A DNA stretch of 9,349 nucleotides from Escherichia coli (GTDB taxonomy: Bacteria; Pseudomonadota; Gammaproteobacteria; Enterobacterales; Enterobacteriaceae). Each line of letters opens with the position of its first letter. Position 1 is the first letter of the stretch. This document shows positions 8,538 through 9,005 of this stretch, in pieces. The position numbers were made by a program, and so were the translations under genes. Under the pieces are notes generated by a model. The model was not told where the DNA came from, did no database searches, and saw only the letters and a program-made list of their open reading frames with translations. The stretch lies in the NCBI RefSeq assembly GCF_003334315.1, contig NZ_QOWR01000090.1; one strand, written 5' to 3'.

Positions 8538-9005
8538 GAGTGACTAGGCGAGGGAGAAATCCCTCGCCGCCTCTGATGTGTCAGGCATCCTCAACGCACC
8601 CACACTTAACCTGATTCGGCGAGTTTATTTTATCTGTGAATATTTTTATAAAAATAATGCCCATACACAGCAAAAAACAAAAAGTATTACAGATAAAAAA
8701 GGAGCGTAATGTGCAGATTTGTTGTTTTCCATATTTACTCACCTTAATATGATTAATCCTGATAGGATTGTTATTTCAGCGGTTTTCAAATGAGATATTA
8801 TGGTGATCTGACAAATTTGCATAACATTAAAATTTAATTTGTTTAACCGCTTTTAATAATAAGCGTTGTTTGTATCCCAGCAATCTGTTGTTTGGTTTTT
8901 ATTCCATTAAGGTGGGGGCTTTACACTGGAACCAGTTTATTTATACTTTATACGTCAGCCTGAACAACTGGCATCTGCTGCACTGCGCCATCGAGAGATT
9001 GAGAA

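Follow-up and report, generated by a model that had tools for sequence, protein, structure and literature searches.

Morons are reportedly extra genes that lie, with a promoter and a terminator of their own, between conserved phage genes, as in the work of Hendrix and colleagues on HK97 and HK022. Tiny hydrophobic single-helix peptides are characteristic of type I toxin-antitoxin loci such as hok/sok, ldr/rdl, ibs/sib, shoB/ohsC, zorO/orzO and tisB/istR, and Gifsy phages have a LexA-controlled dinI-antirepressor-irsA operon (PMC3121763). Here we compare these systems with an AT-rich segment, positions 8606-9005, of a 9,349-nt stretch of Escherichia coli DNA (contig NZ_QOWR01000090.1 of assembly GCF_003334315.1; hereafter the window). 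The segment lies between hok and a DUF1367 (irsA-like) gene that is cut by an insertion sequence (IS). With moderate confidence we read it as a conserved two-part module of Rac/Qin/Gifsy-type lambdoid prophages, consisting of a small membrane-peptide gene and an irsA-Q promoter. Part 1 (approximately 8640-8866) would be a self-contained, moron-like unit with a 28-codon gene, its Shine-Dalgarno sequence and an AT-rich promoter region; the gene is predicted to make a single-helix membrane peptide and to be transcribed against phage early-right transcription. Part 2 (approximately 8915-9005) would provide a sigma-70 promoter and leader for transcription of irsA(DUF1367)-ybcO-Q. The module may also shield the Q operon from transcription leaving the cargo genes on its left.

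The small gene is an unannotated open reading frame (ORF) on the minus strand (8646-8732), with its ATG at 8732-8730 and its TAA at 8648-8646. An in-frame TGA stands three codons upstream of the ATG, and a Shine-Dalgarno sequence, AAGGTGA (8739-8745, minus strand), can be read 6 nt from it; other lineages have AAGGTGA, AAGGTGG or AAGGTAG, and one has the weaker AAAGTGA. The product, MENNKSAHYAPFLSVILFVFCCVWALFL, opens with a polar stretch of 10 residues, and the remaining 18, up to the C-terminus, make a hydrophobic helix (mean hydropathy 2.6 for residues 11-28). Our survey covered 124 copies of the module in fetched loci, mostly IMG/VR contigs recovered by a conserved 21-mer, and the known copies belong to four sequence lineages, all from E. 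coli or close relatives. The ORF has exactly 28 codons in 74 of the 75 IMG/VR copies with the start motif, the remaining copy having a premature stop. Across 73 distinct copies, no sub-region but the ORF is free of gap columns, and indels occur in each neighbouring non-coding block; the diversity of the ORF is 0.029, 0.084 and 0.115 at first, second and third codon positions (6, 9 and 17 variable sites, respectively). Between the three most divergent lineages, pairwise differences of 13-15 nt translate into only 4-6 amino-acid changes. When the same substitutions were placed at random, as few amino-acid changes without a stop were obtained in 0.7% of trials for the window versus the E89 type, in 0.03% for the window versus L075, and in 0 of 20,000 for the E89 type versus L075. 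ORFs that overlap it in another frame, or from the opposite strand, are interrupted in other lineages. Diversity is 0.076 each for the small ORF and for the promoter block of part 2, compared with 0.24-0.34 for sampled flanking gene ends. From the conservation and the substitution pattern we infer that the small ORF is a coding gene, whose product would be translated and inserted into the membrane.

The peptide is absent from the catalogues examined. No annotated feature lies on the segment in the 40 matches listed, which are spread over the whole ranking of 1367 matching genomes, nor in the four phage records or the two plasmid-collection records that contain it. A comparison with NCBIfam (Hok, Ldr, Ibs, TisB, ShoB, ZorO, DinQ and other families) at E<=10 returned only a chance match to a Borrelia lipoprotein (E 0.046, below cut-off). 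Exact look-up of 10 variants of the peptide in approximately 15 billion predicted proteins found none of them; the same collection does hold a neighbouring 29-amino-acid ORF, described below, whose length just suffices for gene callers. A full-text literature search with the peptide strings found no paper. Including its stop codon the gene measures 87 nt. Common gene callers have a minimum of about 90 nt, and this difference of 3 nt may explain the omission from annotation. A plus-strand mini-ORF that follows an apparent AAGGAG (MCRFVVFHIYSP) was also considered and discarded, as it is the complement of conserved Ala-Pro-Phe-Leu codons and its length differs among lineages.

In its size, its polar N-terminus and hydrophobic C-terminus reaching the end, and its Cys-Cys pair, the peptide resembles YnfS (29 amino acids) of the K-12 Qin prophage (NC_000913), and both genes lie, antisense to Q, in that part of a Qin/Rac-type prophage where the late regulators are. 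The two differ in that ynfS is downstream of Q and annotated in K-12, whereas the ORF described here is upstream of irsA and annotated in no record examined. Kinship between them was rejected, as no convincing alignment was found.

Upstream of the small ORF lies a conserved AT-rich block (8795-8866), probably its promoter on the minus strand. The diversity of this block is 0.10, which is low for non-coding DNA. A position weight matrix (PWM) scan of the four lineages identified a minus-strand candidate with a -35 element, ATGCAA, at 8822-8817 and a -10 element, TAATAT, TAACAT or TAGCAT, at 8800-8795, and this is the only promoter candidate kept at the same position in all four. An A/T tract upstream of it (8823-8845) is UP-element-like. 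The predicted transcript would start near 8788 and have a leader of about 55 nt. Two short helices are found within the block. The first (8795-8802/8820-8827) fits only a minus-strand RNA and lies on the promoter candidate. The second (8848-8852/8861-8865) holds its pairing in all 73 copies if read as plus-strand RNA, but not as minus-strand RNA, and two of its pairs show double compensatory changes; it is just 5 bp long and lacks the T-run in L075. This plus-strand helix may serve as a terminator, or as an insulator, that separates the Q operon from cargo expressed in the lysogen, a role that would fit the fixed position of the module. We rejected a third hairpin (8755-8759/8765-8769), seemingly compensatory, two positions of which pair in only 43-46 of the 73 copies. 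An 11-nt direct repeat (8717-8727/8883-8893) was set aside as a trans-pairing site, being T-rich and lost in the E89 lineage.

Further information on this unit is provided by the divergent copy L075, in which homology covers approximately 8640-8866 only, that is, the ORF and the upstream AT-rich block. This copy sits in a different prophage context, near integrase- and tail-fibre-like sequence. Since L075 keeps only this stretch, the ORF and the AT-rich block form one transferable unit, and its behaviour places the ORF's own expression signals inside 8733-8866. The only terminator near the small ORF is the adjacent hok or IetS terminator, which is without a good U-tract in the minus direction.

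Part 2 contains the best consensus match of the region, a sigma-70-type promoter on the plus strand (8920-8947), TTTACA (8920-8925)-16-TATACT (8942-8947), with 10 of 12 consensus positions and a predicted start near 8954. Both hexamers are identical in 72 of 72 copies. The remainder of 8915-8956 has 12 variable positions, of which six belong to the spacer, four to the discriminator and two to the upstream sequence; by our own calculation the chance that 12 variable sites would all miss the hexamers is approximately 0.008. The promoter is followed by the DUF1367 (irsA) 5' untranslated leader (8957-9005, plus strand), which is the only part of the segment common to O157-type prophages, at 98% identity among the matches listed, and the junction of this homology falls at the predicted transcription start. 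The same promoter block stands ahead of both downstream gene types found in our survey, including the Qin-type 92-amino-acid gene. It faces the DUF1367(irsA)-DUF1364(ybcO)-DUF1133(Q) genes, and we regard it as a likely late-regulator promoter. For the four-gene antQ operon of Gifsy-1, the start of transcription was mapped approximately 1.6 kb upstream of antQ (PMC4825925); together with the Gifsy irsA operon, this is a precedent for a promoter ahead of an irsA-Q operon.

The Gifsy dinI-antirepressor-irsA operon and the 'rem' cassette of Rac and Qin occupy the same slot upstream of irsA as the module, with which they also share a predicted promoter into irsA and Q. In contrast to them, the module has no LexA box and no conserved plus-strand antirepressor ORF, its sole conserved ORF being hydrophobic and on the opposite strand. 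A search that allowed up to three mismatches did not find the LexA consensus, and CTGT-N8-ACAG with up to one mismatch is absent from 8600-9010. All candidates for a small plus-strand antirepressor ORF are broken by stops in other lineages and by indels at 8867-8914, a variable spacer without strand between the conserved parts, which has 16 gap columns, a diversity of 0.165 and an 8-nt insertion in the E89 lineage. The -10 element and predicted start of the irsA promoter lie between the arms of an invariant 6-nt inverted repeat, CCAGTT...AACTGG (8932-8937/8966-8971). This repeat may be a repressor operator or may be due to chance, and its invariant arms give no covariation information.

The window is a defective Rac-type lambdoid prophage. 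According to the annotations of the best-matching genomes, the order of genes is YdaT, DUF977, cargo, hokD, DUF1367-DUF1364-DUF1133 (the last a Q-type antiterminator), lysis genes and trkG, with a cargo block of a BCCT transporter, DUF2254, LysR, gamma-glutamylcyclotransferase and an MFS transporter. Of 5426 complete E. coli genomes, 254 contain 80% or more of 8200-9349. The segment or part of it is found in 1367 of the 5426, at identities from 100% to 77%, with a median of one copy per genome and at most two. The same arrangement of approximately 375 bp is held by vB_EcoS-683R6 and vB_EcoS-666R9, phages recovered as virions. When the conserved 21-mer was searched for in GTDB species representatives, only 7 chance matches in AT-rich genomes turned up, and at this stringency the module appears limited to E. 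coli and its close relatives. A degenerate codon pattern used against IMG/VR for divergent homologues gave 32 matches, all from lineages already known. Literature on a hotspot, small RNA or small protein at this position yielded general context only.

The neighbours of the module are constant on one side and variable on the other. Downstream, DUF1367/irsA follows in 79 loci and the Qin-type 92-amino-acid gene, then ydfU-ydfT, in 40, with one locus that differs. The upstream neighbours form 17 clusters among the fetched loci; these include hok/sok, DUF1971, IetAS (IetS E 1e-298), PD-Lambda-2 component C (E 2e-41), an OLD/PARIS-like ATPase, KilA-N, a RelE-like toxin and IS elements. The lineages of the module are reshuffled against both flanks, and an identical DUF1367 protein (WP_000940319.1) is found behind module copies that are only 77% alike. 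From the neighbour survey and the reshuffled lineages it follows that the module forms the fixed right-hand limit of a hotspot with variable cargo and defence genes, placed directly before the late-regulator genes. In six loci (L002, L008, L011, L035, L060 and L104) the position of the transporter/LysR cargo and hok is taken by genes that are known, or are candidates, for defence. Their products are IetA/IetS, PD-Lambda-2 component C, an OLD/PARIS-like ATPase and some large ATPase-like proteins, 689 and 824 amino acids long, that are uncharacterised. The cargo position looks like a lambdoid-prophage defence hotspot with the AT-rich module as its right border. The uncharacterised 92-amino-acid gene of the Qin-type contexts (MAHDTKLHNSDD...) comes after the module and ahead of ydfU-ydfT (L005, 3393-3671, and approximately 40 other loci); in K-12 its position holds 'rem' and a 346-bp unannotated gap.

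How close does this come to a moron? Presence and absence between otherwise homologous phage genes is found here: in phage Rac (MN652886) and K-12 Qin the 'rem' cassette fills the same slot, between hok and irsA or ydfU, and in L075 the ORF unit occurs alone elsewhere. As in morons, the unit is short, deviates in base composition from its surroundings and is predicted to be transcribed independently, here against the surrounding operon. It differs from them in being unusually small (approximately 225 bp with a 28-codon gene), in being coupled to the irsA-Q promoter block, and in its fixed place at the border of a hotspot rather than among the variable cargo; the promoter and terminator that it would call its own are predicted ones.

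Several observations weigh against the two-part module as we describe it. The peptide has no family in NCBIfam, PHROGs or PADLOC, and the pairwise pN/pS (non-synonymous relative to synonymous change) of the small ORF, 0.33-0.55, is only moderate. With four lineages, all from E. coli or close relatives, comparative power is limited, and the expression and translation of every part are read from sequence. Thermodynamic folding of both strands was no better than that of shuffled sequences (z = +0.87 and -1.2). Promoter calls are unreliable in DNA of 27-33% G+C, and the block of part 2 can also be read on the minus strand as TTGTTC-16-TATAAA, a weaker promoter that is yet equally conserved. Finally, a constitutive promoter before Q would be harmful in a lysogen, and the irsA promoter must therefore be weak, repressed or silenced; H-NS is among the candidates for keeping it quiet.

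A type I toxin-antitoxin system, which would refine the module explanation, is the alternative that survives best, and we consider it unlikely. The peptide would be a membrane toxin whose mRNA is repressed by a plus-strand antisense RNA running from about 8760 to the 8848-8865 hairpin, in a second, unrelated module beside hok/sok that serves prophage maintenance or abortive infection. Like the type I toxins named above, the peptide is tiny (28 amino acids, under 60), hydrophobic, single-helix and predicted to be membrane-targeted; the flanks are conserved, AT-rich and non-coding, and the module adjoins hok/sok and defence cargo in a prophage. A hypothetical antisense-RNA promoter, TTTCCA-16-TATGAT (8726-8753, plus strand; 9 of 12 consensus positions and a PWM hit), overlaps the start of the small ORF, with a predicted transcription start near 8760, and its -10 variants (TATGAT, CATAAT, AATAAT, TATTAT and TATTCT) all retain A2 and T6. 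However, its -35 element overlaps the ORF start and is hence constrained by coding anyway. The plus-strand pairing of 8848-8852/8861-8865 in every copy, with its compensatory changes, also speaks for an antisense RNA; against this stand the 5-bp length of the hairpin, the T-run absent from L075 and a folding energy no better than that of shuffles (z = -1.2), and the helix at 8795-8802/8820-8827, which overlaps the promoter candidate, is a minus-strand structure only. Unlike most type I toxins, which have long structured leaders, the module would have a short one. The peptide has no similarity to Hok, Ldr, Ibs, TisB, ShoB, ZorO or other curated toxins, and the antitoxin RNA is hypothetical. There is no hok/sok homology in 8630-9005 (the sok match ends at 8387 and that of hok at approximately 8629), and a search of 7600-9349 against Rfam at E<=1 found sok only and nothing in the segment. 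Tandem duplications are absent, the copy number per genome being one to two, and many small membrane proteins are not toxic. A bolder form of this proposal, in which the peptide and a cis-antisense RNA of the 225-bp unit make up an undescribed type I toxin-antitoxin (or abortive-infection or exclusion) family that also guards the Q operon against read-through, is likewise doubtful in our estimation.

Alternatively, the ORF may be untranslated and the conservation due to regulation alone: the DNA would hold promoters, a non-coding RNA, or a signal that terminates or insulates transcription between cargo and the Q operon. Three of the four lineages agree at every nucleotide of the ORF's 3' end (TGGGCATTATTTTTATAA), synonymous sites included, the plus-strand hairpin shows covariation, and strong terminators abut the module on its left, all of which would suit such a role. 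The concentration of substitutions at third codon positions and the scarcity of amino-acid changes, far below random, argue for coding instead. Start codon, stop codon and the length of 87 nt are preserved with no indel, unlike in every neighbouring non-coding block, the Shine-Dalgarno sequence is at optimal spacing, and there is no Rfam match in the segment. On this evidence we regard an exclusively regulatory function as improbable.

The sequence-only reading of the segment had been that of horizontally acquired AT-rich DNA, possibly silenced by H-NS; taken to its end, the segment would be anonymous intergenic DNA of no specific content that serves only to mark an island. The composition on which it relied was borne out. 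The G+C content is 0.33 at 8606-9005 and 0.492 for the whole window; sliding 400-nt windows have a mean of 0.492 (sd 0.052) and a minimum of 0.328, starting at 8621, and only 0.11% of them are as AT-rich as the segment. Over 8640-8870 the G+C content falls to 0.27, a composition distinct from that of the flanking genes (0.49-0.55; MFS transporter 0.547, hok locus 0.518 and DUF1367 start 0.489). Both of the A/T strings that it quoted are present, and 7 of the 37 A/T runs of at least 8 nt in the window fall within the segment, which makes up 4.3% of its length. It also named the flanks correctly, hok/sok on the left and an IS-cut gene with an IS2-like end on the right, and its view of an accessory mosaic rather than core chromosome agrees with the Rac-type prophage setting and with presence in a minority of genomes: the G+C content is not average, and the region is far from syntenic in all relatives (254 and 1367 of 5426 genomes, for the longer and the shorter stretch given above).

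Variable presence among strains, very low G+C and frequent A/T runs in a prophage are what anonymous DNA would predict. The part of the claim that stands is that the segment is accessory, mosaic and prophage-borne; the part that does not is that it is generic foreign filler, a description that overlooked a conserved module with an ORF and a promoter. The small ORF and promoter block are distinct conserved blocks that vary less than the flanking gene ends, the ORF has a coding signature, and the promoter hexamers are invariant. The published high-affinity H-NS motif, TCGATAAATT, is not enriched in the window or the segment at up to two mismatches (11 matches versus 9.2 expected, one of them in the segment), and H-NS binding could coexist with a functional reading. 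The low G+C content plausibly stems from the AT-rich promoter-like block and the codons of a hydrophobic ORF (Phe/Leu/Ile/Asn/Lys), and not from foreign origin alone. We consider it quite improbable that the segment is anonymous DNA. Very improbable is a decayed remnant (pseudogene) of a larger gene between hok and irsA, since, defective as the prophage is here (hok terminator mutated, irsA cut by an IS), the same arrangement occurs in the virion-recovered phages, no longer ORF is conserved on either strand (ORFs of 38, 43, 53 and 77 amino acids are broken in other lineages), and an in-frame alignment to an intact larger gene was found in 0 of 120 loci.

The borders of the two-part module can be drawn from the homology of its neighbours. 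On the left, sok is identified by Rfam at 8213-8387 (116 bits), and hok lies at 8382-8537, with a match to the NCBIfam Hok family (E 3.8e-13) that is under the curated cut-off; RefSeq names it hokD. The 3' end of the hok mRNA module, including the terminator hairpin (8538-8629, plus strand), is outside the AT-rich module. Because this homology, measured against the hok loci of phage Rac (MN652886) and K-12 Qin, runs to approximately 8629 (ends 8626-8629), the distinct AT-rich unit is 8630-9005. In the window the hairpin (8609-8625) has decayed to CCTGATTCGGCGAG, versus CCCGCTTCGGCGGG in most other copies, where alignments show it intact with a T-run. On the right, the DUF1367 (irsA-like) gene begins at 9006, and its first 89 codons (9006-9272, plus strand) remain; homology to intact copies ends at 9272, the intact gene of strain CP53 encoding 199 amino acids. 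The gene is cut by an IS3-family (IS2-like) end at 9273-9349. Over these terminal 77 nt the identity to the sequence that immediately precedes an annotated IS3-family transposase is 92%, and we take them to resemble an end of IS2. The decayed hok terminator and the IS insertion in irsA point to a decaying prophage.

A second small hydrophobic ORF, the 29-amino-acid one mentioned above (MLVLKCALAIAAVMAIYCLAVVLMDRLSD), is located just upstream of hok/sok (8081-8170, plus strand), with a GTG start and a strong AGGAGG 5 nt upstream. The unit that holds it (7878-8185) is 81-99% conserved in approximately 40 fetched loci, including loci without hok. The ORF is unannotated in RefSeq CP53, is called a 'putative membrane protein' in occasional other records and has no NCBIfam match. 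A weak sok-like Rfam match at 8149-8271 (minus strand; 19.9 bits, E 0.093, far under the gathering score) overlaps the 5' end of the sok/hok leader and is probably due to the palindrome of the leader stem, not to another gene.

The kind of element that we describe is known, a moron-like small membrane-protein gene joined to an operon promoter; the gene itself is new, unannotated and of narrow distribution. As such the element is ordinary in kind and does not overturn current views, and should its peptide prove to be a toxin it would add one more type I family. It does expose an annotation gap, as a conserved small gene in about a quarter of complete E. coli genomes is annotated in no record examined. 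The cargo of the hotspot that it bounds includes hok/sok, IetAS, PD-Lambda-2, OLD-like ATPases and metabolic genes, and the module can be used as a landmark for finding new cargo and defence genes in lambdoid prophages. The invariant promoter ahead of irsA-ybcO-Q offers a way into late-regulator control in Rac/Qin-type prophages that lack a cleavable repressor.

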